Assembly (NCBI GenBank): GCA_005223125.1
Contig: NJBH01000002.1
Span: forward strand, 1-64,000
DNA length: 64,000 nucleotides
Reading direction: 5' to 3'
Source of the DNA: Promethearchaeota archaeon Loki_b32
GTDB taxonomy: Archaea > Asgardarchaeota > Lokiarchaeia > Sigyniarchaeales > SOKP01
Shown here in pieces: positions 21,072 through 57,535 of this stretch. The position numbers were made by a program, and so were the translations under genes. The notes under the pieces are model-generated. The model was not told where the DNA came from and ran no database searches. It saw nothing but the letters and a program-made list of their open reading frames with translations. The first letter of the stretch is position 1; every line of letters starts with the position of its first letter.

Positions 21072-22706
21072 ATGATTTCTGATGATCATCTATTTACAAA
21101 CATTGGCATTGATAGCGTTGGATTTCACGCTCCAAGGCATTTCGTCAAACTAGAAGAACTAGCACTACAAAGAAAAGTCGATCCTGAAAAATATAGGAAA
21201 GGACTTCTGTCTAAAGAGATGCGAGTCGTTGATGCTGACGAAGATATTATATCTCTTGGTTTGAAAGCGGGATATAACGCGCTACAAAGAGGAAACGTCT
21301 CTCCTAGGAGTATTGACGCACTATTTGTTGGTACTGAAACAGAGGTATATGCAGCTAAGAGTATTTCGAATATTTTTGCTGAAATGTTGAATATATCTCC
21401 CAATTCACTAACACAAGATATTTACAACGCATGCGCTGGTGGTACGCTAGCAATTCTTAATGCAATCGCATTGATTGAAAAAGAAATTATAAGCAAAGCT
21501 CTCATAATAAGTGCTGACATATCTCAATATCATTTAGGATCCCCTGGTGAACCTACACAAGGTTCAGGTGCTATTGGACTAGTAATTTCCAAAAATCCAC
21601 GAGTTGCTAAATTTTCTACAAAATTCGGAAAAATTTCTGGGAATGTAAATGACTTTTTTAGACCTGCAAATGATAAAAATGCGAGAGCTTTTGGGAGTTA
21701 TTCTCAAGATACGTATATCGATTTTCAATTGAAAGCATATGATGATTTAATTAGTAATATGGGAGATTTTCATGCTAATTTTTACACGTTTCACGCCCCA
21801 TTTTCAAAATTACCTTTAAAAATTATGCAACAAATCATATTAAAACGTTGGATAAAGCATATAAGTGACTTACCTAAATTTGAACGGAATGAAATTAGAT
21901 CCTCAATTCTAAAGAAAATAGATTCATTTTTGCACGATGTTACCGTCTTACCAGAATATTTATATTTAAAACTCAATGAAAGAGGATTTTCTTCATCAAC
22001 ATTAGAAAGATTTTCAAATTGGGTGAATACCAATATAAAGGCTAGGGTTTTTCCTCAATTACGAGTTCCTATGCATTTTGGTAACATGTACAATGCATCT
22101 GTGTGGGCGCAGGTAATTTTCCTTCTCGAAAATCATACCCATGTTAATGATACAATTTATTTCGGTTCTTACGGTTCTGGAGCAATATGCATTTCAGGTT
22201 TGTTAAAGGTCCAGAATAGATTTAAGGAAATTGTTCAAAAGGGACCATATATTAATGATTTCATTCATTTGAAAAAGAAGAAAAGTGTCTTAGAATACGA
22301 GTTAATAAAGAATGGTGATCTTCGGCCAATAGTTCTATTAGGAAAGATTAGTGAACATGAACAGAACAATAACAGGGGATTTACTCTACATTTTTGTGAT
22401 GAGGGATGTATTATACCTAATATAAAAGGATTGAATCGTTGTCCTAAAGGTCACTCTGGGTACTATGAAAGGTTCTTTCCTCTTTTTGCAAAATTAGAGA
22501 GTGAGCCAATGGCTCACAACAATGTTAATGATCTTAGATATTTAAGTAAAGGTTTAGTACGCGTTGCTAGTAATGTCAGCAAAGGTAATTCTTTAGAATA
22601 TGAGATAAGGCGAGTAGAAACTGAGTTTGAGGAAAATGTCAATGCAAAAGGACTTTTAAATTGGACTCCTTTTTATATTAATCTACCAAATCACCATGTG
22701 TATTAG
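21072..22706 (+). CDS. HMG-CoA synthase with fused C-terminal DUF35-like (Zn-ribbon/OB) domain
   Basis: GTET, NACAGG, EPTQGSGA, HAPF, GNMYNAS, SYGSG; C-terminal CDEGC...CPKGH. Confidence 0.9.
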   Translation: MISDDHLFTNIGIDSVGFHAPRHFVKLEELALQRKVDPEKYRKGLLSKEMRVVDADEDIISLGLKAGYNALQRGNVSPRSIDALFVGTETEVYAAKSISNIFAEMLNISPNSLTQDIYNACAGGTLAILNAIALIEKEIISKALIISADISQYHLGSPGEPTQGSGAIGLVISKNPRVAKFSTKFGKISGNVNDFFRPANDKNARAFGSYSQDTYIDFQLKAYDDLISNMGDFHANFYTFHAPFSKLPLKIMQQIILKRWIKHISDLPKFERNEIRSSILKKIDSFLHDVTVLPEYLYLKLNERGFSSSTLERFSNWVNTNIKARVFPQLRVPMHFGNMYNASVWAQVIFLLENHTHVNDTIYFGSYGSGAICISGLLKVQNRFKEIVQKGPYINDFIHLKKKKSVLEYELIKNGDLRPIVLLGKISEHEQNNNRGFTLHFCDEGCIIPNIKGLNRCPKGHSGYYERFFPLFAKLESEPMAHNNVNDLRYLSKGLVRVASNVSKGNSLEYEIRRVETEFEENVNAKGLLNWTPFYINLPNHHVY

Positions 22707-22710
22707 AGTA

Positions 22711-22774
22711 TTTCTTAATCTCGGACGTACACTGAATCCTAAAAGGATGCAATAATTTGGAAGGGATTAAGAAA
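22711..22774 (+). other. Intergenic stem-loop between HMGCS and HMGR
   Basis: TTTCTTAATCTC (22711-22722) pairs with GGGATTAAGAAA (22763-22774); inner ATCCT-AAA-AGGAT hairpin. Confidence 0.5.
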
Positions 22775-22806
22775 AATTTATTAATTTTTAAATTTATGAA
22801 AAGATA

Positions 22807-24087
22807 ATGAAAGAATTTCGTTCAGATATATCAGGATTTTACAAGTTAGCTATTGAAGAGCGCCAAAAAATGATATTTGATCTTTTCGAATTAGCTCAAG
22901 ATGAGATAAAACTTTTGCAAAATTTTGGATATTTTAAGCCAAAACAAATCGACACGTTAATCGAAAATGTAGTAGGTAGTTATCAGTTACCCTTTGGTCT
23001 TGCTTTTAATTTTAAAGTAAATGGCAAAGATTATATAATCCCTATGGTTATTGAAGAGCCTTCTGTAGTTGCTGCTGCATCGAATGCTGCGAAGATGGCG
23101 AGAAAACATGGTGGATTTCATTCGGAACATGTAAAATCAGTAATGATTGCTCAGATTCAAGTAACACAATTAAAAGATATTGAATCAGCAAAAAAATCTA
23201 TAGAAGACAATAAAAAGAAGCTATTAAAGATTGCAAATGAGCAGGATCCGCTATTAAATAAGTTAGGCGGAGGAGCTCAAGATATAGAGATAAGAGAAAT
23301 CCAAACTAAAAAAGGAAGGATGATTATTCTTCATTTATTAGTCAATGTACTAGATGCTATGGGCGCAAATGTATGCAACACTTTTGCTGAAGCTATTAGT
23401 CCTCAGGTAGAGGAGATAAGTGGTGGTAAAGTAAACCTCCGGATAGTTTCTAATTTAGCTGTTCATCGTTTAGCTAGAAGTAAAGCCACATTTAATAAAG
23501 AAATGTTAGGAGGACGAGAAATAGTCGAAGGAATTTTAAATGCTTATGAGTTTGCTCAAGCTGATCCATATCGAGCAACAACACATAATAAGGGAATAAT
23601 GAATGGAATTGTTGCACTAACCTTAGCAACTGGAAATGATACTCGTGCAATAGAATCTGGTGCACATGCCTTTGCCTCTTTAAATGGGCAATATTCACCT
23701 TTAACTAAATTCGAGCTAGATTCTGAGGGAAATTTAGTAGGTGAGATCGAGGTGCCTCTTGCCTTAGGGATAATTGGTGGGATGACTAAAATACATCCTA
23801 TGGCGCGATTAGCTCTAAAAATTTTGAATGTAAAAAGTGCTAATGAGCTCTCGCAAGTTGCTGCAGCCCTTGGATTAGCTCAAAATGTTGCAGCCTTAAG
23901 GGCATTAGCTTCAGAAGGGATTCAAAAAGGTCATATGGCTCTTCATTCTCGTAACATTGCGAAAATCGCTGGTGTACCTGATGAATTAATAGAAAAAGTT
24001 TCAAAAAAAATGGTGGCAGAAAAGAAAATTAGGGTTGATTACGCAAAAGAAATTTTACAAAAAATGAATGAGGGTGAAAACCTTTAG
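22807..24087 (+). CDS. mvaA: HMG-CoA reductase, class II
   Basis: ENVVG, EEPSVVAAAS, DAMGAN, THNKGIMNG, GIQKGHM. Confidence 0.93.
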   Translation: MKEFRSDISGFYKLAIEERQKMIFDLFELAQDEIKLLQNFGYFKPKQIDTLIENVVGSYQLPFGLAFNFKVNGKDYIIPMVIEEPSVVAAASNAAKMARKHGGFHSEHVKSVMIAQIQVTQLKDIESAKKSIEDNKKKLLKIANEQDPLLNKLGGGAQDIEIREIQTKKGRMIILHLLVNVLDAMGANVCNTFAEAISPQVEEISGGKVNLRIVSNLAVHRLARSKATFNKEMLGGREIVEGILNAYEFAQADPYRATTHNKGIMNGIVALTLATGNDTRAIESGAHAFASLNGQYSPLTKFELDSEGNLVGEIEVPLALGIIGGMTKIHPMARLALKILNVKSANELSQVAAALGLAQNVAALRALASEGIQKGHMALHSRNIAKIAGVPDELIEKVSKKMVAEKKIRVDYAKEILQKMNEGENL

Positions 24088-24168
24088 TTTTATAAAAAGT
24101 GGTTCTGTAACTTCTCTAAGAAAAATCATTATTGTTGTTAGTTTTATCAAGATAATCAAGTATATGAG

Positions 24169-25479
24169 ATGAATTTTATGGGATTTAGAGAATATTTAAA
24201 TAAAATTGATAAGGAAGGACTACTCCAAAAAGTAGACGTTGAAATCTCTAAAAAATTAGAAATTTCCGGAATTTTAAAGGAGATTGAGCCAACCCCTGTA
24301 ATGTTTAATAATGTAAGAGAATCTGAATTTCACGTGGTTGGTAATGTGTTCTGTACAAAGAATGTGATTGCTTCATATTTTGGCGTGACCCCCGCAGATC
24401 TAATTCCTATGCTTTCAAAAGCAATTACTGATCGCTCAGAACCAGATATTGTGTCTAACGCTCCTTGTCAAGAAGTAATCGAATCTAGTGTGGATTTAGA
24501 TAAAATACCTATATTATTTCACTGTGATAAAGACGGGGGAAATTACATTAGTTCTGCTGTTGTTGTTACAAGGGATCCTGATTATGGTCAAAACTTAGAT
24601 TTTCATCGAGCAATGCAATTCTCAAAAGAAAAATTTGCCACCCGTATTGTTAAAGGACGTCATTTTTCTAAATTTTTAGAAAAAAATGGAGAACTTGAAG
24701 TAGCTTTTTGTATAGGAAATACTCCTAATATTTTAATTGCCGGAGCAACTTCTGTAGACATCGGAGTTGACGAACTACATATTGCCAATGCGCTAGAACC
24801 AATTAAAGTAGTAAAAGCAAATTCTGTTGATCTTTTAATACCAGCTGAAGCAGAGTTCATATTAGAAGGTCGTGTTTATCTGGAAGAAAAACATTCAGAA
24901 GGTCCTTTTGTTGATTTAACTGAAACATATGATACGATCAGAGAAGAACCTATTTTTGAAGTAAAAAGAATTACTCATAGAAAAGATGCGATTTGGCAAG
25001 CTCTTCTACCAGGTGCTCTTGAACACAAAATTTTGATGGGCATGCCTCGGGAACCAACCATTTTCAACAAGGTAAATGCATTGGGAGTGAAGTGTTTAGA
25101 TGTGAATATTAGCCCTGGTGGGTCTTCTTGGTTGCATGCAATAGTTCAAATTGATAAAAAAGCAGAAGAAGATGGTAAAAAAGCAATAGAGGGAACCTTT
25201 ACAGGACATAAAAGCTGTAAACATGCTTTTATTGTTGATAAAGACATTAATATTTATGATCCCTTATCTGTAGAGTGGGCTATGGCCACTCGTTTTCAAG
25301 GAGATATAAGAATGGTCGTTAAAGATAAAGAACCAGGAAGCAGTTTAGATCCAAGTGCTGAACCTGGAACAAAAATGACAACGAAAATTGGCTTTGATTT
25401 GACTAAACCACTTATTGTCAAAGGAAAGAGTTTTGATATTGCTGAATTTCCAAAGGTCGATATTAACAAATATCTTTAA
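24169..25479 (+). CDS. UbiD-family decarboxylase, probable anhydromevalonate phosphate decarboxylase
   Basis: DGGNYI, EGPFVD, EH, WAMATR, SSLDPS; context between HMGR and the AcnX pair. Confidence 0.88.
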   Translation: MNFMGFREYLNKIDKEGLLQKVDVEISKKLEISGILKEIEPTPVMFNNVRESEFHVVGNVFCTKNVIASYFGVTPADLIPMLSKAITDRSEPDIVSNAPCQEVIESSVDLDKIPILFHCDKDGGNYISSAVVVTRDPDYGQNLDFHRAMQFSKEKFATRIVKGRHFSKFLEKNGELEVAFCIGNTPNILIAGATSVDIGVDELHIANALEPIKVVKANSVDLLIPAEAEFILEGRVYLEEKHSEGPFVDLTETYDTIREEPIFEVKRITHRKDAIWQALLPGALEHKILMGMPREPTIFNKVNALGVKCLDVNISPGGSSWLHAIVQIDKKAEEDGKKAIEGTFTGHKSCKHAFIVDKDINIYDPLSVEWAMATRFQGDIRMVVKDKEPGSSLDPSAEPGTKMTTKIGFDLTKPLIVKGKSFDIAEFPKVDINKYL

Positions 25480-25496
25480 GATGAGGAAAGGAAAAA

Positions 25497-26690
25497 ATGA
25501 AATTGACATCAGAAGAACTAGACATGTTAGAAGGTAAGTATGGAAAAGCAGTCCAGAAGTCGATGGAGATATTAACTACACTAGGTGAAATATTTGATGC
25601 TGAAAATATGGTCGATGTTTATGGTGTACAAATAGCTGGAGTTTCATATGCTAATTTAGGGGAAGCTGGTTTGGAATTTCTAAGCGAAATAGCAGAAGAT
25701 GGCAAGGTTAGAGTCTTAACAACTTTAAATCCTGCCGGAATGGATCGTGAAAATTGGCAAGCTTTAGGAATAGATGAAGAATTTGCTAAAAATCAAAATC
25801 ATGTAATTGATGCTTTTGCTAAAATGGGCGTAATTACAACTTGCTCTTGTACACCCTATTTAATTGGAAATACACCTCATTATGGTCAACATATAGCATG
25901 GGCCGAAAGTAGTGCTGTTTGTTATGCCAATTCCGTTATTGGTGCTCGAACTAATCGTGAAGGAGGACCAAGTGCATTGGCATCAGCCCTCACGGGAATA
26001 ACCCCTAAATATGGTTATCATTTAGATGAAAATCGTCATGGAGAAGTTTTAATTAAAGTTAATGCTCCAGTTAACGGTACTGACGAGTTTGGTGTATTAG
26101 GAAAAATAATTGGAGAAAAATTGGGGGAGTTAGAAAAGAAAATACCTTATATAACAGGTATTACTAATGCCACTGTTGAAGAACTCAAGTCATTTTGTGC
26201 TTCTGTGGCGACTTATGGTGGAACTGCGCTATTCCATATGGAAGGAATAACACCAGAATATAATAGATATCCTAAACCAAGTAATATTACTGTTGAAATT
26301 AACCAAGAAGATCTGGATAAAACACGATCGGAACTTATAGATGAAGATCTTGAAATAGATTTTGTAAGTATAGGTTGCCCTCACGCTTCAATTCACGAAA
26401 TTGAAAAAATTGCCAGGCTATTAAAAGGAAAGAAAGTAAAAAAAGAATTTTGGATAACTACTGCACGACCTACAAAAAGGATTGCCGATGAAGCCGGTTA
26501 CTCCAAAATAATTGAAGATGCAGGAGCGAAATTTGCAGCAGATACATGTTGTGTTGTTGCTCCAATTAAAGGCCGTTTCAAAGGAATAATGGTAGATTCA
26601 GCAAAAGCGTGTTATTATGGAAGGGCAAAAAATAAATTTAAAGTAAAAATTGGTCCAGTTGAGGAATGTGTGGAGGAGGCAATAAAATGA
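25497..26690 (+). CDS. Phosphomevalonate dehydratase large subunit (aconitase X)
   Basis: GVSYANLG, CSCTPY, WAESSA, GCPH, DTCCVV. Confidence 0.9.
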   Translation: MKLTSEELDMLEGKYGKAVQKSMEILTTLGEIFDAENMVDVYGVQIAGVSYANLGEAGLEFLSEIAEDGKVRVLTTLNPAGMDRENWQALGIDEEFAKNQNHVIDAFAKMGVITTCSCTPYLIGNTPHYGQHIAWAESSAVCYANSVIGARTNREGGPSALASALTGITPKYGYHLDENRHGEVLIKVNAPVNGTDEFGVLGKIIGEKLGELEKKIPYITGITNATVEELKSFCASVATYGGTALFHMEGITPEYNRYPKPSNITVEINQEDLDKTRSELIDEDLEIDFVSIGCPHASIHEIEKIARLLKGKKVKKEFWITTARPTKRIADEAGYSKIIEDAGAKFAADTCCVVAPIKGRFKGIMVDSAKACYYGRAKNKFKVKIGPVEECVEEAIK

Positions 26691-27076
26691 AGTTAAAAGG
26701 AAGAAAAATCTATAAAGGTACAGCTGAGGCAGAAGCGATTGTTACAAAAGATGGAATTTCATTTTATGGTGGTGTGGACCCTGATACGGGGAAAGTAGTT
26801 GAGGTTGGACATGAATTAGAGGGTAAATCTATAACTGGAAAGGTTTTAGTATTTCCAACTGGTAAAGGATCTACAGTAGGATCTTATACCATGTATAGAA
26901 TGAAGAAGAACAACACCGCTCCTGTTGCAATTGTCAATAAACAAATCGATACTATTGTTGCAGTTGGATGTATAATAAGTGAAATTCCATGTGTGGATAA
27001 GATTGATATAAGTTTTATCAAAACAGGGCAAAAAATTATTGTTAATGGTTCTGAAGGAACCGTGGAAGTGAAATAA
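26687..27076 (+). CDS. Phosphomevalonate dehydratase small subunit (DUF126 swiveling domain)
   Basis: ISFYGGVDP, GKGSTVGS; ATG at 26687 overlaps the upstream TGA (ATGA). Confidence 0.9.
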   Translation: MKLKGRKIYKGTAEAEAIVTKDGISFYGGVDPDTGKVVEVGHELEGKSITGKVLVFPTGKGSTVGSYTMYRMKKNNTAPVAIVNKQIDTIVAVGCIISEIPCVDKIDISFIKTGQKIIVNGSEGTVEVK

Positions 27077-28012
27077 ATGGGAACTGGAAAAGGATATGGA
27101 AAAACTATACTATTCGGAGAACACTTTGTTGTATACGGATTACCCGCAATCGCCTCAGCATTAAGATCCTATACAACAGCAGAAGTTAAGTTAGGTGATG
27201 GCAGTGGTTGGACGGTTGATGATCAAAGACCTGCAACTCCAGGTTATAAAAAAAAGAAATTCAATGAGGCAATGCAATCAATTAAAAATGTTATAGAATA
27301 TTTAAAAATAGATACAGAGAATCTAGAACTTGAGATAACATTTGCTGGTGACTTAATTGCTGCTAGTGGAGTAGGAGCTTCAGCAGCTCAATGTACATCA
27401 CTTTCCCGAGCTATAAATGACACATTTGATCTTAATTTAAATGATGAAGAGATAAATAAAGCAGCCTATGAAGGAGAGAAAGCATATCATGGAACTCCTT
27501 CGGGTATTGATAACACAGCCTCTACTTATGGTGGTTTGATATGGTTTGTTAAAAATTTGGAAGGGGGAAAAAATACAATGGATCTTCTGCAATCGCCGAA
27601 AAAGATGCCTTTAATTATAGCAAATTCAGGAATAACTGCATCAACAACAGAAGTAGTGGCAGATGTTCGACGTTTAAAGGAGGAATCTCCAAAAAAATTT
27701 GAAAAAATCTTTACTAAATATGAAAGATTAGCTGCAGAAGCAAAAAAAGCCTTACTTGAAGCAGATATTACCACCATTGGTAATTTAATGAATCAAAACC
27801 ACAAATTACTGCAAGATATAACGGTTTCCGGCGAGATTAATGATAAATTAGTTGAAATTGCGTTAAAAAATGGATCTATTGGTGCAAAAATGACAGGAAC
27901 TGGGCGAGGTGGCTTGGTTATTGCTTTAGCAGAAAATGAAGAAGTACAAGATAAAATTGCCAAAGCTATTGAAAAAGAAGGATTTAATGCTTGGAAAACC
28001 ATGATTGGATGA
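27077..28012 (+). CDS. mvk: Mevalonate kinase
   Basis: GKTILFGEHFVVYG, GVGASAA, HGTPSGIDN, KMTGTGRGG. Confidence 0.95.
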   Translation: MGTGKGYGKTILFGEHFVVYGLPAIASALRSYTTAEVKLGDGSGWTVDDQRPATPGYKKKKFNEAMQSIKNVIEYLKIDTENLELEITFAGDLIAASGVGASAAQCTSLSRAINDTFDLNLNDEEINKAAYEGEKAYHGTPSGIDNTASTYGGLIWFVKNLEGGKNTMDLLQSPKKMPLIIANSGITASTTEVVADVRRLKEESPKKFEKIFTKYERLAAEAKKALLEADITTIGNLMNQNHKLLQDITVSGEINDKLVEIALKNGSIGAKMTGTGRGGLVIALAENEEVQDKIAKAIEKEGFNAWKTMIG

Positions 28013-28835
28013 GTGCGAGTTAAAATTGAACAATAATAATGATATAATCTTGTTAAAGTTAGGTGGAAGTTTATTAACTGATAAAGATGAACCATTTTCA
28101 ATTAGAGAAGATGTTGTTAAAAATGTAGTTAAACAAATAATTGATGCTAATGAAAAATTAATTTTGATTCATGGAGGAGGCTCATTTGGGCATCCTTTAG
28201 CAAGAGAATATAGTATTTCAGAAGGGATAAATAGTTCTATCCCTAATCAAATTCTTGGTCTTACTAAGACTCATCAATCAATGATTAAATTCAATACTTA
28301 TTTGATCAATTTATTTTTAGAATATAATTATCCCGTCTTATCATTTCAACCTTCTGGTATTTTCATTAAAGACTCTCAGGATATTTCTATTCAATCCATT
28401 GATACTATTGAAACTGCGTTAACTCTAAATATCTTACCTATTTTATATGGAGATATCATTCTCGATAAACAGGGTTCGTTTTCAATAATTTCGGGAGATC
28501 AGATAATTTTTGAGCTATGTGTAAAGTTAAAAAAATTTAGTATCTTAAAAGTTATTTTTGCAATTGAAACTGATGGAATATTTATAAATGATCAAGAAAC
28601 AAAAGATATTAAATTGGCTACTGAGTTATATTCAAATGAATTAGACAGTTTAGATTTAGCAGATTTAGGTAAAAAAATCGATGTTACTGGCGGAATTGAA
28701 GGTAAAATTAATTCTATTAAAAATATTTGTAAATCTAATATTCCTGTACAATTGATCAACGGATTAAAAGAGGAGTATGTTTACAAATCATTAAAGAATA
28801 AAAAATTAAATGGTACAAATATTATGATTAAATAA
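28005..28835 (+). CDS. ipk: Isopentenyl phosphate kinase
   Basis: KLGGSLLTDK, HGGGSFGH, SGD, DVTGG; the start may be TTG at 28026. Confidence 0.93.
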   Translation: MDECELKLNNNNDIILLKLGGSLLTDKDEPFSIREDVVKNVVKQIIDANEKLILIHGGGSFGHPLAREYSISEGINSSIPNQILGLTKTHQSMIKFNTYLINLFLEYNYPVLSFQPSGIFIKDSQDISIQSIDTIETALTLNILPILYGDIILDKQGSFSIISGDQIIFELCVKLKKFSILKVIFAIETDGIFINDQETKDIKLATELYSNELDSLDLADLGKKIDVTGGIEGKINSIKNICKSNIPVQLINGLKEEYVYKSLKNKKLNGTNIMIK

Positions 28836-28854
28836 TAACACGCTCTTATAAAAA

Positions 28855-29973
28855 ATGACAAAAATAGAGATGAATTATATGCCAAAATCAAATCAATCTA
28901 AAGAGATAATGGATAGAAAAATAGAACATCTTAAAATACCATTAGAGTATGATGTACAGCACTCTAAAAACTATTTTAATGATATTAAACTAATACATCA
29001 TCCTCTTCCAGATGTAGATTTTGAGGATGTCGATCTTTCTACAAATTTCTTTGGTAAAAAAGTATCTGCTCCTATTTGTATTTCAGCAATTACTGGGGGT
29101 CATCCTGTCTCTAAAGAAATTAATAAGGTCTTAGCAAAAGCAGCAGAAGAAGAAGATATTATAATGAGTGTAGGAAGCCAACGTGCTGGAATAGAAGACC
29201 CTAATCTATTAGATTCATTTGAAATTACACGTAAAGTTGCACCCGATATCCCTATTATAGGTAATATTGGGATAGGGCAGATTAGCGCTCTTAATTTTGA
29301 AGTGGAGGATTTTAATAAATGTATTGAGATGATAAATGCAGATGTTATGGCAATTCATTTAAATATATTACATGAATTAGTTCAAGATAAGGGAGATATA
29401 TCCTATAAACTTTTTCGCAAGAATTTTCAAAATTTACGAGAATTATATAAAATTCCTATAATTGCGAAAGAGGTCGGAACAGGATTTAACCAAGATTTAG
29501 CTTTAATCCTTGACAAACTTGGTTTTGATGGATATGATATTGGCGGTACTGGAGGAACTAGTTTTGCGGCAATCGAATCTAAGCGTGATAATTTCGATAA
29601 TCAGAAATATACCCGGAATCCTGCGGAGGTCTTTAGAGAATGGGGAATACCGACACCTTTGAGTATAATTTATGTTAGAAATGTCTCTCAAAAATTAATA
29701 ATTGCTACTGGAGGTCTAAAAACGGGAATAGATATAGCAAAATCTATTGTTTTAGGTGCTGATTATGGTGGCTTTGCTTATAAATTTCTTCAATCTGCAT
29801 GGAAAGATAGGAAAACAGGATCTATTTCTTATACTGTTAAAGAAATAAGAACTTTGAAAAATGAATTACGTTCAAGCTTATGGTTAATGAATATTTACAA
29901 CGTAAATGAATTAAAGGGTAAGCGAGACAAATTTGTTATTCTTGGGGAATTATATCAATGGTTACACCAATAA
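28855..29973 (+). CDS. fni: Type 2 isopentenyl-diphosphate isomerase
   Basis: RKIEH, ITGG, VGSQR, AKEVGTG, GGTSF, WGIPT. Confidence 0.95.
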   Translation: MTKIEMNYMPKSNQSKEIMDRKIEHLKIPLEYDVQHSKNYFNDIKLIHHPLPDVDFEDVDLSTNFFGKKVSAPICISAITGGHPVSKEINKVLAKAAEEEDIIMSVGSQRAGIEDPNLLDSFEITRKVAPDIPIIGNIGIGQISALNFEVEDFNKCIEMINADVMAIHLNILHELVQDKGDISYKLFRKNFQNLRELYKIPIIAKEVGTGFNQDLALILDKLGFDGYDIGGTGGTSFAAIESKRDNFDNQKYTRNPAEVFREWGIPTPLSIIYVRNVSQKLIIATGGLKTGIDIAKSIVLGADYGGFAYKFLQSAWKDRKTGSISYTVKEIRTLKNELRSSLWLMNIYNVNELKGKRDKFVILGELYQWLHQ

Positions 29974-30040
29974 TTGAAGTTTTTTTTTAAAACCTATATG
30001 TAAGGCGATAAGAAAAAAATATTAACGAGTCATCTTGCTT

Positions 30041-30262
30041 TTAGTATTTGGAATCAAAAATCTTATTTACTAGATAACAACCCCTATTATTCTCCTCACC
30101 AAAAATGCATCTGTGTCTAATATCATTCTTTTTTTGTGAATATTTCATACATCCCCAACATTGACCTTTTGCTAAGCTGAACTTTTTTTTCTTATTAAGT
30201 TCTCTTACCTCTTCACATATTTGAAGGGCTACTTCTTCTGGAATTGGCTTTTTATCATCCAT
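30041..30262 (-). CDS. Small Cys-rich hypothetical protein
   Basis: 73 aa with C...CWGC...C...C. Confidence 0.65.
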   Translation of the reverse strand: MDDKKPIPEEVALQICEEVRELNKKKKFSLAKGQCWGCMKYSQKKNDIRHRCIFGEENNRGCYLVNKIFDSKY

Positions 30263-30392
30263 AATATAATATTTTATATGGTTAGATTTAAAAGATGCTC
30301 TCTTAGATATAACTTAGGTTTTATATTATTAAAGGCTTCAGTAGACCAGAAATAAATTTTAAAAATTTAAATTGTGAATTTTACTCTTTAGA

Positions 30393-30779
30393 TTATAGTG
30401 GCTTTTGTTCTAAAGCATCCTTTATTTCATTTTTAAAATTAGAAAAAGCGCCAATTTGACCTTTGAAATTAACCAATTTATCACTATAAAGCTTAATGAA
30501 CTTCTCAGAGATTTTTTTCAATTCTTTATTTACTTTTTTCTGATTGTATTTTTTAGAAGAGTTTGCCACAAAAATTAACCCACTTGTCTTTATTATAGTG
30601 AATCTTGAATTTTCTAATTCAAAATTTGACATACCTCCTTCAGCTAACTGTTCAGCAAACATATTTAAGGCACTCATCATCGCTCCAAAAAGTTGAGGAG
30701 AAACTACGTTATCAAACTCTCTATGAAAAATTACAATTCCTGATCTCTCAACAATCCAAATATCTTGAAGTATTTTCAC
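30393..30779 (-). CDS. Stand-alone longin-like domain protein
   Basis: IWIVERSGIVIF beta hairpin, LFGAMMSALNMF helix, three strands, C-terminal helices; GTG start after AGAGG. Confidence 0.7.
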   Translation of the reverse strand: MKILQDIWIVERSGIVIFHREFDNVVSPQLFGAMMSALNMFAEQLAEGGMSNFELENSRFTIIKTSGLIFVANSSKKYNQKKVNKELKKISEKFIKLYSDKLVNFKGQIGAFSNFKNEIKDALEQKPL

Positions 30780-30953
30780 ATGAATTCCTCTTTAAAAAAC
30801 TTTTTAACTAATTATTGTAAAGAAATTTTTTAAATGGATCTAATATAAGAATTTTAAAATACAATCATTTTTAATTTTTTTATGACTTAAATATATTCTC
30901 GTTTAGATTTTAAGTTTTTGAAGCTTTGATCTAAATTATTAAATTAAAAAATG

Positions 30954-31502
30954 TCATGTGTTCCCCCATCTCTTAATATTACTCTCAATCCCGATTTGGT
31001 CTAAAATCCTCCCTATTGTAAAATCAATAAGTTCATCTATATTTTCGGGTTTAATATAATAAGATGGAATAGGAGGGAAAATTATAACACCTAATTTTGC
31101 CAACTTGAGCATGTTTTCCAAATGAATAGCACTAAAAGGGGTTTCTCTTACTACAAGAATAAGTTTTCTTTTTTCCTTTATTGCTACATCTGCAGCTCTA
31201 GTAATCAAATTGTTAGCATAACCATTTGCAATCGCAGAAAGAGACTTCATCGAACAGGGAATTATAATCATAGAATCTAATTTATAAGATCCACTCGCTG
31301 GAGGTGCTAATAGATCATTAACTTCATAATTTTTATCCGCTAATTTACGAACTTCAGAGATTTTATAATCTGTTTCAACAGATATTATCTTTTCAGCATT
31401 TTTTGAAATAATTAATTCAGTTTCAACATCTTTCTCCTTAAGTATTTCTAGAAGCCTAATCGCCAAATGAACTCCAGAGGCACCGGTAACCGCAATTAAC
31501 AT
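30954..31502 (-). CDS. ubiX: Flavin prenyltransferase
   Basis: VTGASG, ASGS, PCSMKSL, RAADV, RETP, HLENM. Confidence 0.95.
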   Translation of the reverse strand: MLIAVTGASGVHLAIRLLEILKEKDVETELIISKNAEKIISVETDYKISEVRKLADKNYEVNDLLAPPASGSYKLDSMIIIPCSMKSLSAIANGYANNLITRAADVAIKEKRKLILVVRETPFSAIHLENMLKLAKLGVIIFPPIPSYYIKPENIDELIDFTIGRILDQIGIESNIKRWGNT

Positions 31503-31693
31503 TAACTTTACTCTTAGTGTTTTTAATTACAAAAACTATTTTGATTTTAATAATTCAATTATGATTTCTAGTTCTTATTTTTTTTTATATTGGATAATAA
31601 GATAAATACGCTTTAATTTGCTGGGAAATTAAATAATTAGTTTACTGTTAAATATTAAAAAGATTTTAATTATTAAATTATAAGAATTAATGA

Positions 31694-32080
31694 TTATACT
31701 GCATTGCTTTGTTCTATATGCTCAAGAATATCAGTAAAATCAGATAAATCAAAGGGTTTTTTTAAATAACCATCTGCTCTTGTTTCAAGTGCTTTTATAG
31801 CAACTTCAGCTTCGGAAACGCCTGTAAAATAATAGATCAATACTTTTTTGAATTTATCTTTTGATTTAAGCATTTTACAAAATTCATAACCGTTTGAATC
31901 AGGTAAATTTACATTTAAAAATAATAATTTAGGTATATGATTATTTAATTCTTTTATTGCTTCTGAAGTATTTTCAACTGCTTTGCATGTAAACCCTTTT
32001 GATTTTATAATTTCTTTTAATAATGCTATTATAAATCTACTATCATCTACAATTAAAATGTCATATTCAGAATTATCAAG
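31694..32080 (-). CDS. Single-domain receiver (CheY-like), phospho-Asp replaced by Asn, no canonical start; possibly a pseudogene (not in the ORF track)
   Basis: Manual translation: LDNSEYDILIVDDSRF...PKLLFLNVNLPDSNGYEFC...FTG...ADGYLKKPF. Confidence 0.75.
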   Translation of the reverse strand, partial: LDNSEYDILIVDDSRFIIALLKEIIKSKGFTCKAVENTSEAIKELNNHIPKLLFLNVNLPDSNGYEFCKMLKSKDKFKKVLIYYFTGVSEAEVAIKALETRADGYLKKPFDLSDFTDILEHIEQSNAV

Positions 32081-32095
32081 AAATTATAAAATTTT

Positions 32096-33163
32096 TCAAA
32101 ATTCTCTCTCGATTACAAAATTTAACAAACTCTCAAAAAATTCAAATTCAGAATGATTAATCACAGGTTTCAAATTATTTAAAGATGATTTTGCTTCTTG
32201 AAAATACGAATTTGCTAGATCTTTACATGAATTAATTACATCTGCTTTGAAAAATAAATCTTTGACTTTTTGGACATCATTACTTGTCATATCTGGCTTT
32301 TCTATTAAGTTTTCGAGTTCAATTCTTTCTCTTTCTTCTAATTTATTCCACGCATCAAGTAGTAAGCATGTCTTCTTACCTTCTCTAATATCTCCATCTG
32401 TTGGTTTTCCAGTGACTTTTTCATTACCATATGTACCCAAAATATCATCAATTATCTGAAAAATAATACCAAGGTTTAATCCATAAATTGAAAGATCCTT
32501 CAAATACCTCTCATCAACTTTCGCATAATTGGCACCAATTAAAATAGATTTTTCAATTAGAGTGCTAGTTTTAAGTGATATCATATTTATATAATCAGCA
32601 ACAGACAGATTCTTCTGGTTAACCATATCAGTTTCTATTAAAACTCCATTTACTATCCCTATAAAAGCTTGTTCATAATAATCAATTGCTTTTAATTTAA
32701 GAGCATTTTCAAATTCATTAAACAAATGTGCCTCTAATCCTAAGATAAATGCAGAATCTCCTCCAATTATCCCTATTGAATTACCAAAGTCAATATCAAG
32801 CATTTTTTTTAAATCGTACTGTTGATGATAATTGCGAAATCTAAAATGGAAGGAGGGTTTTCCTCTTCTAAAATTATCTTTATCGATAATGTCGTCATGA
32901 ATTAATGATGCATTATGGAGAAATTCTACTCCAACGCTTGGTAAAATGATCTTATCATCATTATCTTTACTAAATCCGTTATAAGCAGCAACACATAATA
33001 AAGGTCTGATTCTTTTGCCCCCCGAAAGAAAGTAATCGCTTAATTCTGAATAATAATCCTTCAAGAAAGAATTTTCAACACTATTTAGTTTCTTGTCAAA
33101 TATCGATTTTATCACACTATTAATCTTGGGAATATATTTTTTTGTGTATTCTGTAAATTTCAT
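32096..33163 (-). CDS. Trans-prenyltransferase (GGPP synthase, IdsA-like)
   Basis: GGKRIRP, LIHDDIID..RRG, KT, FQIIDDIL, DIREGK. Confidence 0.92.
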   Translation of the reverse strand: MKFTEYTKKYIPKINSVIKSIFDKKLNSVENSFLKDYYSELSDYFLSGGKRIRPLLCVAAYNGFSKDNDDKIILPSVGVEFLHNASLIHDDIIDKDNFRRGKPSFHFRFRNYHQQYDLKKMLDIDFGNSIGIIGGDSAFILGLEAHLFNEFENALKLKAIDYYEQAFIGIVNGVLIETDMVNQKNLSVADYINMISLKTSTLIEKSILIGANYAKVDERYLKDLSIYGLNLGIIFQIIDDILGTYGNEKVTGKPTDGDIREGKKTCLLLDAWNKLEERERIELENLIEKPDMTSNDVQKVKDLFFKADVINSCKDLANSYFQEAKSSLNNLKPVINHSEFEFFESLLNFVIEREF

Positions 33164-37963: not shown

Positions 37964-39028
37964 ATGGAAACAGAGCATAAAGTTCATTTCAAAAATTCAT
38001 CTGATATGAGTGAGATAAAGTCAAATTCTATAGATCTGATGATAACATCTCCACCATATCCCATGATTGAGATGTGGGATGGTTTATTTTCTTCTTTAAA
38101 TGAGGAGGTTAAACAAGCCTTCGAAGAAGAGGATAGGAAAAAAGCATTTAATTTGATGCATCATGAGCTAAATAAAGTCTGGAAAGAAGTAGTTCGAGTT
38201 TTAAAATCAGGGGGAATTGCTTGCATAAATATTGGAGATGCCACAAGAAAAATAGGTAAGATATTTCAATTATTTCCTAATCATGTTAAAGTAATTAACT
38301 TTTTCCAAAATAATGACTTCATTGAATTACCTTGTATTTTATGGAGAAAGCCGACAAATAGTCCGAACAAATTCTTAGGATCTGGAATGCTCCCCCCTAA
38401 TGCCTATATTACCCTTGAACATGAATATATTTTGATTTTTAGGAAAGGTAAAAATAAACGAACTATACCCCCAAAATCAGAAAATAGATATAAAAGTGCT
38501 TTTTTTTGGGAAGAGAGGAATAAATGGTTTTCAGACGTGTGGGAGGACATAAGAGGGATTTCTCAGAATCTAAATAAAAGTAACAATAATCAAAAGAATA
38601 TAAGAAAACGATCAGCAGCCTTCCCTTTAGAAATACCTTATCGCTTAATTAATATGTTTTCCTTATATGAAGATTTGGTTTTAGACCCGTTCTGGGGAAC
38701 AGGAACAACCTCATTAGCTGCCATGATATCTGCAAGAAATTCAATTGGGTATGAAATCAATTCTAAATTCATGGGATTGTTTAAAGAAAATATGGGTAAG
38801 CTTAGAAAATTAAATAGTGAAATAAATAATAATAGATTACATCAACATCTTGAATTTATTAAGCATTATAGGAATAAGGCTAAAGATATTAAATATACCT
38901 CAGCTCACTATAAATTTCCAGTTATTACGAAACAGGAAATAGATGTCTTATTATATTCTATAAAAAATTATAGTGAAAATGAGAATAAATTTATTCTTAA
39001 CCATCAAAAATTTGAATTTGCACAATAA
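37964..39028 (+). CDS. Site-specific DNA methyltransferase, beta class (N4-C/N6-A)
   Basis: TSPPY precedes AAFP and VLDPFWGTGTT. Confidence 0.92.
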   Translation: METEHKVHFKNSSDMSEIKSNSIDLMITSPPYPMIEMWDGLFSSLNEEVKQAFEEEDRKKAFNLMHHELNKVWKEVVRVLKSGGIACINIGDATRKIGKIFQLFPNHVKVINFFQNNDFIELPCILWRKPTNSPNKFLGSGMLPPNAYITLEHEYILIFRKGKNKRTIPPKSENRYKSAFFWEERNKWFSDVWEDIRGISQNLNKSNNNQKNIRKRSAAFPLEIPYRLINMFSLYEDLVLDPFWGTGTTSLAAMISARNSIGYEINSKFMGLFKENMGKLRKLNSEINNNRLHQHLEFIKHYRNKAKDIKYTSAHYKFPVITKQEIDVLLYSIKNYSENENKFILNHQKFEFAQ

Positions 39029-39043
39029 ATAGATAAATTGTTT

Positions 39044-39122
39044 AAATCCTTCCTCGAGCAGAGCATTCATCAAATAACTTTCCTTAAAAGGATTTTTTTA
39101 TTTGAGTCATTATTTTGGATTT
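39044..39122 (-). ncRNA. Putative eukaryote-type SECIS element in the 3' UTR of the 39126 gene
   Basis: RNA: AAAUCC-AAAAUA-AUGAC-UCAAAUAA-AAAAA-UCCU-UUUA-AGGA-AAG-UUAUUUGA-UGAA-...-GGAUUU. Shows an AUGA/GA core, 8-bp helix II, unpaired A run, apical mini-helix and helix I. Confidence 0.7.
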
Positions 39123-39125
39123 TTT

Positions 39126-40049
39126 TTATTCACAATCTTCTTCGGCTTGTTGGAGATTAATCTTTATAAAACCTACTTCCTGAAGATTCCTTTGTTCAGA
39201 TTTCACTGATCTATTTACTTGATGTAAATGTTTCATGGCATTATTTTTTCCTTCTTTGATATTTTCAATTAGTTCTTCTTTATTAAAACCACCAGAAATA
39301 ACAAGAGCCGTTTGAAAAGAATGATCGGGTTCTAAAGTCATAAATTCAATTTGCATAGCAGATAATATTTCTCCTTGTCCTTTATATATAGTATTTGAAA
39401 GGTTCATAGTCTTTTTATCGATTTTGAAATCTTTTGTTAGACATGTCTCGTAGTTTGTTGATTTTGATAGGGGAGAAAATCCACCATATAAACCCGTATT
39501 ATCATATTGGTAAATAACGTCATTTTCTTCATCATAGCCGGATAGATCATTATCAAAACCCGCAAGTCCATTTATATCAAAATCAAAAACAAAATACATT
39601 GAAAAATCTTTTAAGGCAAAATCTGATATGTTTTTAATTGTGAAAAAAGTATTAATATAAGGAATATGAGGTGCATTAAAGATGTCTTTGTACACACGAA
39701 CAAATTGCTTCTTTTCTAATGGAATCAATTTTGAATTTTGTTCTTGAGATAGTTTCTTAAGATACTCTGTAATATTAAAATCTAAAGTAATTCTACTAAT
39801 AGCAGTCCCCGTACGAGTATTTACCATATTGTATATCGGTGTTGGCTCGATATTTTTTAAAATAACTGGAATTGTTCCAATTTTTTTTCCTTCTAGTGTA
39901 AAGCTAAACCAAGGACCTGTTAATTCTTGTTCACTAAGATATATAAGATACTTTCCCATGTATGTCAGTTCTTTAATTGAAAATCCCATTACATAGCCTT
40001 GAGCGTTTCAAGTTCCAACTATATCATGCCAAATAATCTTAAGTACTAT
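39126..40049 (-). CDS. Candidate selenoprotein of unknown family (307 aa; ATA start, UGA at codon 14). The track calls only 39126-39989.
   Basis: AAAGGAGGT (40058-40066), 8-nt spacer, then ATA GTA CTT AAG ATT ATT TGG CAT GAT ATA GTT GGA ACT TGA AAC GCT CAA GGC TAT GTA ATG, in frame with the 287-aa ORF. Confidence 0.62.
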
Positions 40050-40149
40050 TTTTTTAAACCTCCTTTAAATTATTTTAAATTCATTTATATCTTACAATAT
40101 CAATTATTTAGAAAAATGAGAATTTATAAAAATCTTTGCTTAAAAAAGA

Positions 40150-41133
40150 TTAAAGATGTTCTATTACTCTATAAGCGATATAGAGAAAAGCGTCGTTTAC
40201 ATTTTCACCAGTCAGCGCTGAAGTAATAATATAATGCATCCCTCGTTGTTTAGCAACTTCTTTCAATTCATCTTCACTTATCACTATTTCATCCACTAAA
40301 TCAGATTTATTTCCTACTATCACCATTGGAATATTTCTTGATATTGATTTTTTAATATCATTAAACCATTTCTCAACGCTACTTAGACTACCTGATCGAG
40401 TTCTGTCTACAACAATAAATGCAGCATTAGCACCATTGTAGAATTTTGCTCTATAAGGAGCCATTTGTTGCACTTGACCTCCAATATCCCAAATTATAAA
40501 ATTCATTTTAGTAGTTTCACTTAATTCCACTACTTTTTTTGAAATTTGGACGCCAATAGTAGATATATAATCTCTTGCAAATTTATTTTTTATATATCGT
40601 CTAATTAATGAGGTTTTACCAACTTTATAATCTCCAGTTAAAATTAATTTATTTGAATATTCTCCTGCTATATTAGGGAGTTGTCCTCCCCGAGTTTTTG
40701 ACAAAGCTTTTATTATTTCAGGGATTTTTGGAGACACATCCTCATTCGTCGAAAGTACTAATTCTACTTTCGATGCTATGTGTTCTGAATATACTTTTAA
40801 TTCTATATCTGTAGTTGAATGTTTTGCTACTGTTGTTAAAATTGAATTTGGACCCATTGAACTAAAAACAAATTTCTTATCCCCTGTTGATGTAATATTG
40901 AAAAAACTATCAGAAGTCCCAAATTCCGCCTTAATTCTGTCTATATAAGAATCAAGCATAGCAGAAAGCGCTCCAATTATCTCATCAGATTCTTCCTCAT
41001 TTTCTTGTTTCGATTCTGAAGCTATAATAAAACCATTTCTATCACAGATAGCTACCCCTAAAATTCCTTCTATTTCATTGAAATAATTTATTAAAATCTC
41101 TTTTAACAAACTAGCACTCGGAAGCCCTTCCAT
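40150..41133 (-). CDS. Roadblock-Rab-like small GTPase fusion
   Basis: N-terminal roadblock (VAICDRNGFIIAS); GDYKVGKTS, YISTIGV, WDIGGQ, GNKSD, SAL; no C-terminal Cys prenylation motif. Confidence 0.92.
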   Translation of the reverse strand: MEGLPSASLLKEILINYFNEIEGILGVAICDRNGFIIASESKQENEEESDEIIGALSAMLDSYIDRIKAEFGTSDSFFNITSTGDKKFVFSSMGPNSILTTVAKHSTTDIELKVYSEHIASKVELVLSTNEDVSPKIPEIIKALSKTRGGQLPNIAGEYSNKLILTGDYKVGKTSLIRRYIKNKFARDYISTIGVQISKKVVELSETTKMNFIIWDIGGQVQQMAPYRAKFYNGANAAFIVVDRTRSGSLSSVEKWFNDIKKSISRNIPMVIVGNKSDLVDEIVISEDELKEVAKQRGMHYIITSALTGENVNDAFLYIAYRVIEHL

Positions 41134-41457: not shown

Positions 41458-43368
41458 CTATCTATTTAAAGTGTTCATATAATTCAAAATATACTTCCGA
41501 TTACTTTCTGAAATCTTATAAAGATTAAAGACTAATGTATCTATTTGTTTCTGGAGGTTCTCCAATTCACCAATGTTTTCTAAAATTGTCACCACCATTT
41601 CTATTATTTTTTTAGCTTTTTGCTTTTCCTTATCATTAATTGGTATTTTAATGGGAAAATCTTTAATTTTTTCAATCAAAATTCTTGGAAATAACTTTTT
41701 ATATGTACCAAATGATTTTATGAAAAAATAAGATAACAACATTGAATTTATTATTCCCAATAGGTAAAAATGATTGAATTCAGAGATATGTGACTGCTTG
41801 ATTTTTAAATTATAAAAAGATTGAGAAGTTAAAGATAAATTTTTTTCATATGTCGCACAAATTTTACTATTTTGGCTTAATTGTCTAATTACTATTCGAT
41901 CTTCATAGAGACTAAACTTTTTATAATTTATTCCAACTTTGGATATATCGATATACTTATATTGAGTTTTCTGATATCGTCTAATTGAGTATAAATATAA
42001 TTTGAAATTTTCTTTTAGGGCATCTTCAGGAAGGGTGTCGTAAATTATTTTTTCAATCTTTTGCTTATTTAACTGAGCATCACATACACGGCATTTTAAA
42101 AGTTTTTTAGGAACTGGTGTAAATTTTTTACAATTCTCACAATAAATTATCTCTCCTGTTTTAGTTAACTCAACTCCTCTACTTAAAATAAATTTGAATT
42201 CAGGATTATTATCTATATCCTTTAATCTAATGAAATTTTCGGTTAAGTGCTTTATTATAGAGATGTCAGTCTTATTTAAGTGGATTAGAAATTGATAGTT
42301 CCATTTTTCAATTATATCTTGTGGGATGGCCATTTCTTGATTTAATGTTTTTAAATTAATTTGATTCTCAATCCTCTCTAATTTATTAAATTCCTTTTCC
42401 AAAATTATGATTATATTCGAAACAATAGGATCATTAAATTTTGGACCCGTATGGTAAATCTCTTTAATTTTTGTTGAATTATATATATATTTCCTGATGA
42501 CTGATCGATTTGATAAAGCTAAAAGGGAGTCAGGGACAATATAACCCAAAATACCATGGTTTTTTAGAATTCTTATTCCGAGTTCTATAAAAATCTGATA
42601 ATAATCATATTGGCCATCGTTTGTCTTAAAATCGAGACTTTCAATTAATTTTCTTTGATCTTGAGGAATATCTCTAATAAATAGATAAGGAGGATTTCCT
42701 ACAACATAATTATACTTTACCGAATAGTCTATCGTTAAAGCATTAAAATTCTTGATATTAAATTGAGGTAATTGATAATTGGATTCTGATTTTCTTATTA
42801 ACTTTAAAATCTCAAAAATAACAAAATAAATATTAATTTGGCATAAAATACAGGCATTTTGATTAACATCTACTCCAACGATATTTTCATTAACTTTTGA
42901 AATTATAGCTTTAGCTTCATTTGTCGTCAATTGAGAAATTTCCTTTTTTCCATAAATTTCGAGACATCTTATTATAAGGATTCTAATTGCTTGTATAATA
43001 AAGCTCCCAGAACCGCAACTAATATCAATAATTGTTTTATCCTCTATATTGTTAGAACTATTATAGCCAATTACGCTTAAAATATAATTTACTATCGAAA
43101 TTGGAGTATAAAATTCACCCATTTTCTTTTTTTCTTTATGACTTAAAGTGTTTTCATATAATTTACTAAAAATATCATACTCTAGCCTATTTAAATTGTC
43201 ATTTACTCTGGTTGTTTCTTTAACTTTGATATTCTCTAATGAAATGAGATTTTCAAGCAATTTATTTAAAATAAGTTGGTTAGCCTGAGTAGTAGAACTA
43301 TCTTTATAGAAAAAATTTAAACTTTCAATGATTTTTTCTTTTTTTAGATATTTAATGAAATCTTGCAT
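41458..43368 (-). CDS. N6-adenine DNA methyltransferase, gamma class (Eco57I/TaqI-like) with Zn-finger insertion
   Basis: GEFYTP, DISCGSG, GNPPY, TaqI_C-like C-terminus, CENC..CRVC. Confidence 0.9.
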   Translation of the reverse strand: MQDFIKYLKKEKIIESLNFFYKDSSTTQANQLILNKLLENLISLENIKVKETTRVNDNLNRLEYDIFSKLYENTLSHKEKKKMGEFYTPISIVNYILSVIGYNSSNNIEDKTIIDISCGSGSFIIQAIRILIIRCLEIYGKKEISQLTTNEAKAIISKVNENIVGVDVNQNACILCQINIYFVIFEILKLIRKSESNYQLPQFNIKNFNALTIDYSVKYNYVVGNPPYLFIRDIPQDQRKLIESLDFKTNDGQYDYYQIFIELGIRILKNHGILGYIVPDSLLALSNRSVIRKYIYNSTKIKEIYHTGPKFNDPIVSNIIIILEKEFNKLERIENQINLKTLNQEMAIPQDIIEKWNYQFLIHLNKTDISIIKHLTENFIRLKDIDNNPEFKFILSRGVELTKTGEIIYCENCKKFTPVPKKLLKCRVCDAQLNKQKIEKIIYDTLPEDALKENFKLYLYSIRRYQKTQYKYIDISKVGINYKKFSLYEDRIVIRQLSQNSKICATYEKNLSLTSQSFYNLKIKQSHISEFNHFYLLGIINSMLLSYFFIKSFGTYKKLFPRILIEKIKDFPIKIPINDKEKQKAKKIIEMVVTILENIGELENLQKQIDTLVFNLYKISESNRKYILNYMNTLNR

Positions 43369-56641: not shown

Positions 56642-57535
56642 TTATTTTATAACATAAACAAGCTTTTGACCTTCTTGTTCTTCAAGGTTTAATTCTCGTC
56701 TGATAGCATTTCGGATTAAATACCCTCCAATATGAAGTATTGAATCCTTTAGAATGGAATCTTGGTCCATTGAAGCGTTGCAGGGATAAGCATGATGTGC
56801 CTTACTTATCCTTTCATTCAAAGAAAGGTCTCCACTTTTTCCATTTTTAAAATATTTAGCTTTTAATTGTTGACAAACATAATAGGAGCTTCCACAGGGG
56901 GCTGTTTGCAACACACAGGTGTCTTCAATTGATTCTCCATCTTTGCTTAATAAGAAAAAGACAATAGGTACTCCTACTTTAAAATAATCAATGAATTCAT
57001 AAACAAAATTATGTTCTTTAGTTAAATGAAAACCGATTTTATTGTATTCGTCTTGTTCTTTACTTAGTGAACAAAAAGGTTTAGGAAAAGCTGCTTGTAT
57101 ACCAAATTTCTCGAATTCTTCTAATACTTGAACTTGAAGCCCAGCAGGCACCCATTTAGGATCCTCTATTGGAACGATTACAGCCTTAACTTCTTTATCA
57201 TTCAAATAAGATGGAAGCCCAGAGAGTAAATCTTGGTGAATTCCTACAACCAATACAAAGTCAACTGGAGGGAGATTTTTAGGCAAGTAATCTTCTGGTT
57301 CTTCAATAAACTCAGGAACATTTTCTCCTACTTTTTCATAATAATAGATTGAATTTGCATGACTTTTCATATACTCACGACATTTATCACATTTTACATT
57401 TTGTTCTAAATCTTCGCAAGCTTTACAGAATTCCTCATTATTAATGAGATTGCCAACAAATTTTTGAGTTAACATCTCTGTCTCTGGGCCAATACCATAG
57501 AACACTCCTAATTTATAAGTTTTCTCAATCATCAT
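56642..57535 (-). CDS. DUF166-family protein
   Basis: FIEEPEDYLP, HQDL, PKPFCSL, APCGS, YPCNASM...SILH. Confidence 0.75.
   Translation of the reverse strand: MMIEKTYKLGVFYGIGPETEMLTQKFVGNLINNEEFCKACEDLEQNVKCDKCREYMKSHANSIYYYEKVGENVPEFIEEPEDYLPKNLPPVDFVLVVGIHQDLLSGLPSYLNDKEVKAVIVPIEDPKWVPAGLQVQVLEEFEKFGIQAAFPKPFCSLSKEQDEYNKIGFHLTKEHNFVYEFIDYFKVGVPIVFFLLSKDGESIEDTCVLQTAPCGSSYYVCQQLKAKYFKNGKSGDLSLNERISKAHHAYPCNASMDQDSILKDSILHIGGYLIRNAIRRELNLEEQEGQKLVYVIK

Follow-up and report, generated by a model that had tools for sequence, protein, structure and literature searches.

A probable undescribed Asgard selenoprotein family with a predicted beta-supersandwich fold, behind an inferred non-AUG start and an in-frame UGA

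Could an archaeal gene recorded as a hypothetical protein carry a hidden N-terminus in which UGA is read as selenocysteine (Sec)? The question is raised by a minus-strand locus on contig NJBH01000002.1 of Promethearchaeota archaeon Loki_b32, of which we analysed positions 1 to 64,000; this whole stretch of 64,000 nucleotides is called the window here. A sequence-only reading had proposed a strong SD site, an ATA start behind it, an in-frame TGA and a longer open reading frame, and all of these coordinates, including the spacer of 8 nt between the SD and the ATA, hold when the window is read again (Table 1). The TGA is codon 14 and the sole stop within the 307-codon frame, which closes with a TAA at 39126-39128 (−). 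Database copies are "hypothetical proteins" of 286-287 aa that all begin at Met21, downstream of both the ATA and the UGA, so that the gene is indeed hidden from gene callers, as had been claimed. The names given to the homologs indicate Lokiarchaeia/Promethearchaeota.

Table 1. Features of the candidate selenoprotein locus and of its homologs (window positions, except where a locus handle is given)
Feature	Position	Strand	Basis or remark
Roadblock-Rab-like GTPase fusion, upstream neighbour	40150-41133	−	Pfam Ras plus weak Robl_LC7
SD site AAAGGAGGT, GGAGG-type	40058-40066	−	read from the window sequence
Inferred non-AUG start codon ATA	40047-40049	−	genus conservation; ATA also in other genera
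Full CDS, 307 aa	39129-40049	−	predicted beta-supersandwich ~1-255 plus helical C-terminal arm 257-306
In-frame UGA, proposed Sec14	40008-40010	−	first beta-hairpin loop; second position of CxxC/CxxU knuckle
ATG, Met21 (codon 21), gene-caller start	39987-39989	−	yields the truncated 286-287 aa database proteins
D156-F157-D158-x-x-G161 codons (with D168), most conserved motif	39567-39584	−	invariant or nearly invariant alignment columns
Cys306 codon, candidate resolving Cys	39132-39134	−	kept in all inspected Lokiarchaeia-type xxxU forms
Type II eukaryote-like (loki) SECIS	39044-39122	−	helix I, AUGA/GA core, 8-bp helix II, A-run, apical ministem
Extra 3-bp hairpin, 3′ side of SECIS internal loop	39053-39063	−	compensatory changes in 2/3 pairs
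Putative BHB micro-introns in orthologs	L019:1461-1495, L044:2448-2485, L045:1500-1536, L046:2353-2386, L047:1432-1468		tRNA-type

We observed that both the start region and the UGA are conserved. In all 22 intronless loci of the same genus, GGAGG or GAGG stands 5-10 nt ahead of the start and codon 14 is TGA; 21 of them open with ATA and the remaining one with ATT. Other genera retain the ATA though codon 2 varies, with ATT, GTG or TTG in a few, and we infer ATA as the start because no alternative in-frame start is available. A promoter scan gave a result at chance level. Across codons 2-13 of the 22 genus loci, 1592 pairwise changes fall on third positions versus 263 on second positions; the extension is thus conserved and evolves as coding sequence, instead of homologs starting at the downstream Met. 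The gene was found in 143 of the 161 genomes of the class and in about 90% of the sampled genomes of the window's family, where all 124 gene-bearing genomes have the UGA: 119 with a single in-frame TGA (counted from the match table, with ~55 loci inspected directly) and five with a putative BHB intron. Since this conservation spans more than 120 genomes, an assembly error, which the sequence-only reading had allowed for, is excluded.

Which residue stands at this position when UGA does not? The f2 relatives have CxxC and an ordinary start, and the UGA column aligns with their second Cys; homologs have Cys at this site, and not the Trp or Gly that would have spoken against Sec. The Cys forms begin with ATG or TTG at the place equivalent to the ATA. 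CxxC also occurs in P0129, P0132, P0135 and P0151, and CxxU occurs in one f1 genus, in f3 and in f4. A phylum-wide search added f12, with UGA in 18/18 loci, CxxU in 17 of these and ATG starts, and f21, with CxxU in 2/2 full copies. Our reading of f12 as Thorarchaeia relies on the label of a related protein and on the f12 SECIS loops, which begin with GUAAA, a form described for Thorarchaeia. SepSecS is nearly universal in the class, f2 included, so that the Cys form is an exchange within this one gene, with Sec use itself retained. The gene had been framed within Lokiarchaeia; it is present there but not restricted to them, since Thor-like and other Asgard lineages carry CxxU and, as judged from these homologs, the family is common to several Asgard archaeal groups.

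The Cys residues that accompany the UGA also vary by lineage. The first Cys of the knuckle is lost in the window's clade, and all 22 Loki xxxU rows of the tree lack it and keep the C-terminal Cys; most f1 members keep Sec14 and Cys306 only. In the Thor-like and f21 forms the C-terminal arm is absent and CxxU is kept with one exception, the Thor-like copy L127, which lacks both the first and the C-terminal Cys. On the gene tree, CxxU is spread across five lineages, the Loki xxxU forms make up one supported clade, and CxxC appears in two groups. An ancestral CxxU is likely rather than established, because the deep branches are weak and the tree is without a true root.

What could direct Sec insertion at codon 14? 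The sequence-only reading had described a hairpin in the 3′ UTR, and its helix I, core, helix II, A-run and ministem all re-folded as described: helix I pairs 39117-39122 with 39044-39049, the AUGA core lies at 39107-39110 with the GA on the 3′ side, and the upper part consists of an 8-bp helix II, a run of five A, a 4-bp apical ministem and a loop ending in AG. The stems had been given correctly, but the extra hairpin at the 3′ side of the internal loop had been missed. Scored by itself, the element gave a divided result. Its fold energy (−14.1 kcal/mol, z = −1.6) is not beyond chance, the Rfam SECIS models gave no match to it at the gathering score or at E up to 10, and a loose SECIS descriptor returned 24 hits in the genome versus 6-19 in controls and is not specific genome-wide alone. 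On the other hand, its 8-bp stem, 4-bp ministem, 5+3 nt bulge and 4-nt loop ending in AG fall within the type II model of Huang 2024 (GA_GA core, 7-15 bp stem, 2-8 bp ministem, 4-12 nt bulge, 2-6 nt loop; PMC11227280), and Mariotti 2016 lists AUGA, adenines and a loop-final G among the features (PMC4989117).

The significance of the hairpin comes from its conservation, its compensatory changes and its co-occurrence with the UGA. In the 22 genus sequences, 97% of cells pair, a value inflated by the relatedness of the sequences, and compensatory changes occur in helix II and in the extra 3′ hairpin. A descriptor scan found a SECIS core near the stop in 72 of 82 UGA loci (80 genomes), versus 0/82 antisense controls and 0/7 Cys loci, the latter being a small control from one clade. 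The hairpin thus goes with the UGA and is absent from the Cys forms, as expected of the element that the earlier reading had proposed. In the Thor-like loci the SECIS stems diverge strongly in sequence with pairing retained, and the stop codon is often the UGA of the SECIS core, a use of the core UGA that Mariotti describes for VhuU (PMC4989117). In f4 the SECIS and the coding end overlap, and only L024 shows the element clearly; the descriptor scan gave no SECIS for the f3 homolog L060. We also considered a conserved SRE-like mRNA hairpin around the UGA and rejected it; the mean z versus synonymous shuffles was 0.04 (34 loci), with no consensus fold.

The window's element is not alone in having a small hairpin on the 3′ side of its GA core. 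Similar hairpins follow the SECIS cores of the PrxL, VhuD and SelD genes in the window's genome, and the hairpin is seen in f4 and Thor-like loci as well as in the new families of this genome. With such a hairpin returning in the internal loop of these elements, a three-way junction is a possible architecture for the Asgard SECIS; we found no mention of this hairpin in the consulted passages of the published Asgard SECIS descriptions. A VhuD homolog search for SECIS elements returned Cys forms.

Does the genome hold the machinery to use such an element? As the sequence-only reading had asked, we looked for each component, and SelD (two TGA-bearing genes), SepSecS, EFSec/SelB, a PSTK-like gene (KTI12 hit) and tRNA-Sec are all present. 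The tRNA-Sec gene lies at G000 C57:28503-28655 (−) (L146), adjoining SepSecS and about 5 kb from EFSec, and contains two 30-nt BHB introns, one in the D arm and one in the T loop. Because of these introns, Rfam RF01852 and ARAGORN missed it in the raw genome; once both are removed in silico, the sequence is recognised by ARAGORN as a tRNA-SeC of 93 nt with a 9/4 fold.

Putative BHB introns also lie beside the Sec codon itself. In five genus orthologs (L019, L044-L047) the UGA is followed, after one base, by an insert of 28-32 nt with a 4-bp CUUG/CAAG central helix and cut sites in two bulges, of which the exon-side bulge is relaxed; removal in silico at the canonical BHB sites restores the T-U-N frame in all five. 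The window's copy has no intron, and the insert is patchily distributed, with four or more gains or losses required by the gene tree. RNA libraries contain sequence from the selenoprotein family. Reads on L047 gave contigs of relatives only, among them one RNA contig that skips the 31 nt, which comes from a divergent relative and is possibly an intronless allele. The predicted intron resembles the BHB intron of the cbf5 pre-mRNA in Crenarchaeota, which is likewise a small, frameshifting, BHB-bounded insert in a CDS with patchy gain and loss (PMC2738675), and differs from it in sitting 1 nt after a Sec codon and in an Asgard gene.

What kind of protein would be made? The 307-aa sequence has no Pfam, NCBIfam or PDB sequence match. 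Its AlphaFold2 model is confident (mean pLDDT 90, pTM 0.88) and shows a beta-supersandwich followed by helices, in agreement with the earlier description of the protein as beta-rich. In the model the hidden N-terminal extension forms strand 1, and the first hairpin bears Sec14 in its loop. Confidence is lowest in this loop (pLDDT 58) and in the tail (pLDDT 56), which is what mobile elements would show. The closest structures are N-terminal domains of GH94, GH15 and GH116 (Z about 18-20, identity 12-14%), which superpose, linker helix included, with rmsd 2.6-3.4 A over 216-237 residues; aldose epimerase and galactose mutarotase matches (Z 12-13) reflect fold resemblance alone. The predicted fold is thus like the N-terminal beta-supersandwich plus linker of GH94, GH15, GH116 and GH65 (8rf9, 1ulv, 1lf6, 2cqs), but unlike these proteins the chain lacks the catalytic (alpha/alpha)6 barrel, with ~50 helical residues after the sandwich, and has a Sec/Cys knuckle and a C-terminal Cys arm. 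No barrel gene was recognised among neighbours within the 3-10 kb loci. As modelled, the protein is a soluble, stand-alone beta-supersandwich of the GH15/GH94 type without its catalytic barrel. Genome HMM scans also revealed longer and fused homologs: more distant versions of the domain lie inside 1000-1500 aa proteins with Ig-like repeats, and at L060:148-2265 (−) an f3 homolog (CxxU) carries a VWA domain fused to its C-terminus. At L049 (G051:C10:16288-16560; genus g12), a partial second match of the domain's C-terminal part, with stops, lies ~2 kb downstream.

The gene has one recurrent neighbour. Of 50 Loki-order loci, Cys forms included, 44 have the Roadblock-Rab-like GTPase gene upstream in the same orientation, and the downstream neighbour varies. 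The GTPase gene was not seen beside the f4, f12 (Thor-like) or f21 copies, and the family therefore does not require it. Two DNA methyltransferase-like genes flank the pair in the window (37964-39028 and 41458-43368); the former matches N6_N4_Mtase and is the downstream neighbour in 16/50 loci. In f21 (L141, L142), a run of radical SAM, selenoprotein homolog and GcvH genes converges on SepSecS. Further off, window positions 21030-33163 hold, as judged by eye, mevalonate/isoprenoid-like genes for HMG-CoA synthase, reductase, kinase, IPP isomerase and polyprenyl synthase.

Could the UGA be a real stop, ending a short leader peptide with re-initiation at AUG21, or be decoded as another residue? 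AUG21 is invariant in the genus, yet Phe replaces Met21 in one f1 genus. Every database protein begins at Met21 and an ATA start is non-canonical, yet the Thor-like forms share the UGA behind an ordinary ATG. Moreover, the extension supplies a strand of the predicted fold and is homologous to the unbroken N-terminus of the Cys forms, the SECIS tracks the UGA, and TGA also works as a normal stop codon in these genomes. A terminating or otherwise decoded UGA is thus very improbable, and comparative sequence evidence indicates that UGA14 is very probably decoded as Sec in a 307-aa selenoprotein. We propose that the ribosome would start at the ATA behind the strong SD and that UGA14 would be decoded by the genome's own tRNA-Sec, SelD, PSTK, SepSecS and EFSec, directed by a type II lokiSECIS 18 nt past the stop. 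Sec14 would then be a redox-active selenol on an exposed hairpin loop, oxidised by, or attacking, a substrate docked on the sandwich, and resolved by a Cys. In the Thor-like forms this Cys would be the first one of CxxU; in the window's clade, Cys306 of the flexible C-terminal arm would take its place. We give recoding and a redox role, taken jointly, a probability of about 0.5.

How does the redox role compare with other uses of a Sec at this site? CxxU and CxxC are typical redox motifs (PMC13188914), and the retention of CxxU where the arm is absent and of the C-terminal Cys where the first Cys is lost is consistent with a selenol that relies on whichever resolving Cys the lineage has kept. 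By its conservation, then, the C-terminal Cys is the candidate resolving residue, and Cys306 probably serves so in the window's clade. L127, with neither Cys, speaks against a redox role, and the motif is also compatible with a metal knuckle, in which Sec would be a metal or Fe-S ligand and the knuckle, together with the C-terminal Cys or a partner subunit, would bind Zn or a cluster. The loop does resemble a CxxC-xx-G knuckle in a beta-hairpin, P0136 and P0140 have CxxCxxC and no C-terminal Cys, giving three Cys either way, and Sec ligates metal in Fdh and [NiFeSe] hydrogenases (PMC13188914); the two residues left in most f1 members and in Thor-like forms are, however, few for a structural site, and we consider a ligand role unlikely. 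The fold raises the alternative of a sugar-related role, as an enzyme or lectin of the galactose-mutarotase/supersandwich class, in which the DFD acids would act and Sec would be a redox switch only. Its matches to glycoside hydrolase N-terminal domains and aldose epimerases (Z 12-20), its invariant acidic motif, its occurrence beside Ig-like repeats in the large proteins and a predicted glycosidase-like neighbour in f2 (judged by eye) all agree with this, but the identity to the matched structures is 5-14%, the barrel is absent and a shared fold shows no function, which makes a sugar role improbable. Still more doubtful is a part in Sec synthesis or in the assembly of cofactors, as a carrier or relay of selenium or sulfur. 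In the model a flexible loop exposes the residue, and two f21 genomes place the gene between radical SAM and GcvH genes next to SepSecS, but that neighbourhood is confined to one small lineage, and the Loki and Thor-like neighbours are unrelated to Se metabolism.

Is the family new? Seven Asgard selenoprotein families are published: SelD, FrhA/VhuU, HdrA, FrhD/VhuD, Prx-like, DsbA-like and AhpF-N-like (PMC4989117, PMC11227280). The SelD, HdrA and Vhu types named earlier were therefore correct but incomplete, with FrhA and the Prx-like, DsbA-like and AhpF-N-like proteins to be added; the statement that the protein resembles none of the known families stands, given a confident model of a different fold. 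The Asgard survey by Huang et al. searched with known families only (PMC11227280), and the SECIS-first search by Mariotti reported no further candidate (PMC4989117). A 2026 review counts 11 archaeal selenoprotein families, and none of the 119 prokaryotic families that it lists fits when compared by name and domain (PMC13188914). We found no description of the family in the open-access literature; it is probably an undescribed Asgard selenoprotein family, and that it is a new selenoprotein family altogether is very likely.

The recoding system is already known, and it is the family and the fold that are unlisted for selenoproteins. Like the published Asgard selenoproteins, the gene has a UGA, a 3′ SECIS near or overlapping the stop with an AUGA/GA core and an A-rich loop ending in AG, and the same machinery, and its type II form resembles that of Asgard selD; unlike them, the protein is unrelated and has neither a Trx nor a hydrogenase fold. 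As in the CxxU redox selenoproteins (SelW-like, AhpD-like, GrdA), CxxU, CxxC and xxxU interchange at one site, but the scaffold is another, and in the main Loki clade the C-terminus appears to have taken over as the site of the resolving Cys.

Further candidates came to light in the same genome. A second candidate selenoprotein family has tandem UGA-UGA and its own SECIS (G000 C24:226531-227007 and 227230-227697 (−); C32:56535-56996 and 57016-57471 (+); loci L079, L080, L085-L098), with matches in 20/21 genomes over four families, nearly all with two TGA; its protein model weakly resembles beta-grasp/SAMP/MoaD proteins (Z 6-7), with two Sec in place of the di-glycine. An ORF of 85 codons (G000 C70, L081:914-1168 (+)) combines a hydrophobic stretch with one TGA and a perfect lokiSECIS and is a candidate small membrane selenoprotein. 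Two tandem Prx-like selenoprotein genes, one with UxxU, lie at G000 C3:11703 and C3:12443.

Taken together, these observations allow a broader and frankly speculative reading, to which we give low odds: an Asgard-specific family on a scaffold new to Sec chemistry, Sec-bearing before the Loki-/Thorarchaeia split, which in Lokiarchaeia would serve the Roadblock-Rab GTPase module next to it as a redox switch and whose output would be tuned by the non-AUG start and, in some lineages, by tRNA-type splicing beside the Sec codon. A widespread gene that is mis-annotated as a truncated hypothetical wherever we found it named means that the Asgard selenoproteome is undercounted, and the window's genome holds at least one further such candidate family. 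The family would add a fold to Sec biochemistry, and introns next to a Sec codon make archaeal mRNA splicing testable. No known relatives of eukaryotes are closer than the Asgard archaea, and a set of over 70 SECIS sequences on one orthologous gene, with natural Cys controls and the extra 3′ hairpin included, offers material for the archaeal-to-eukaryotic SECIS transition.
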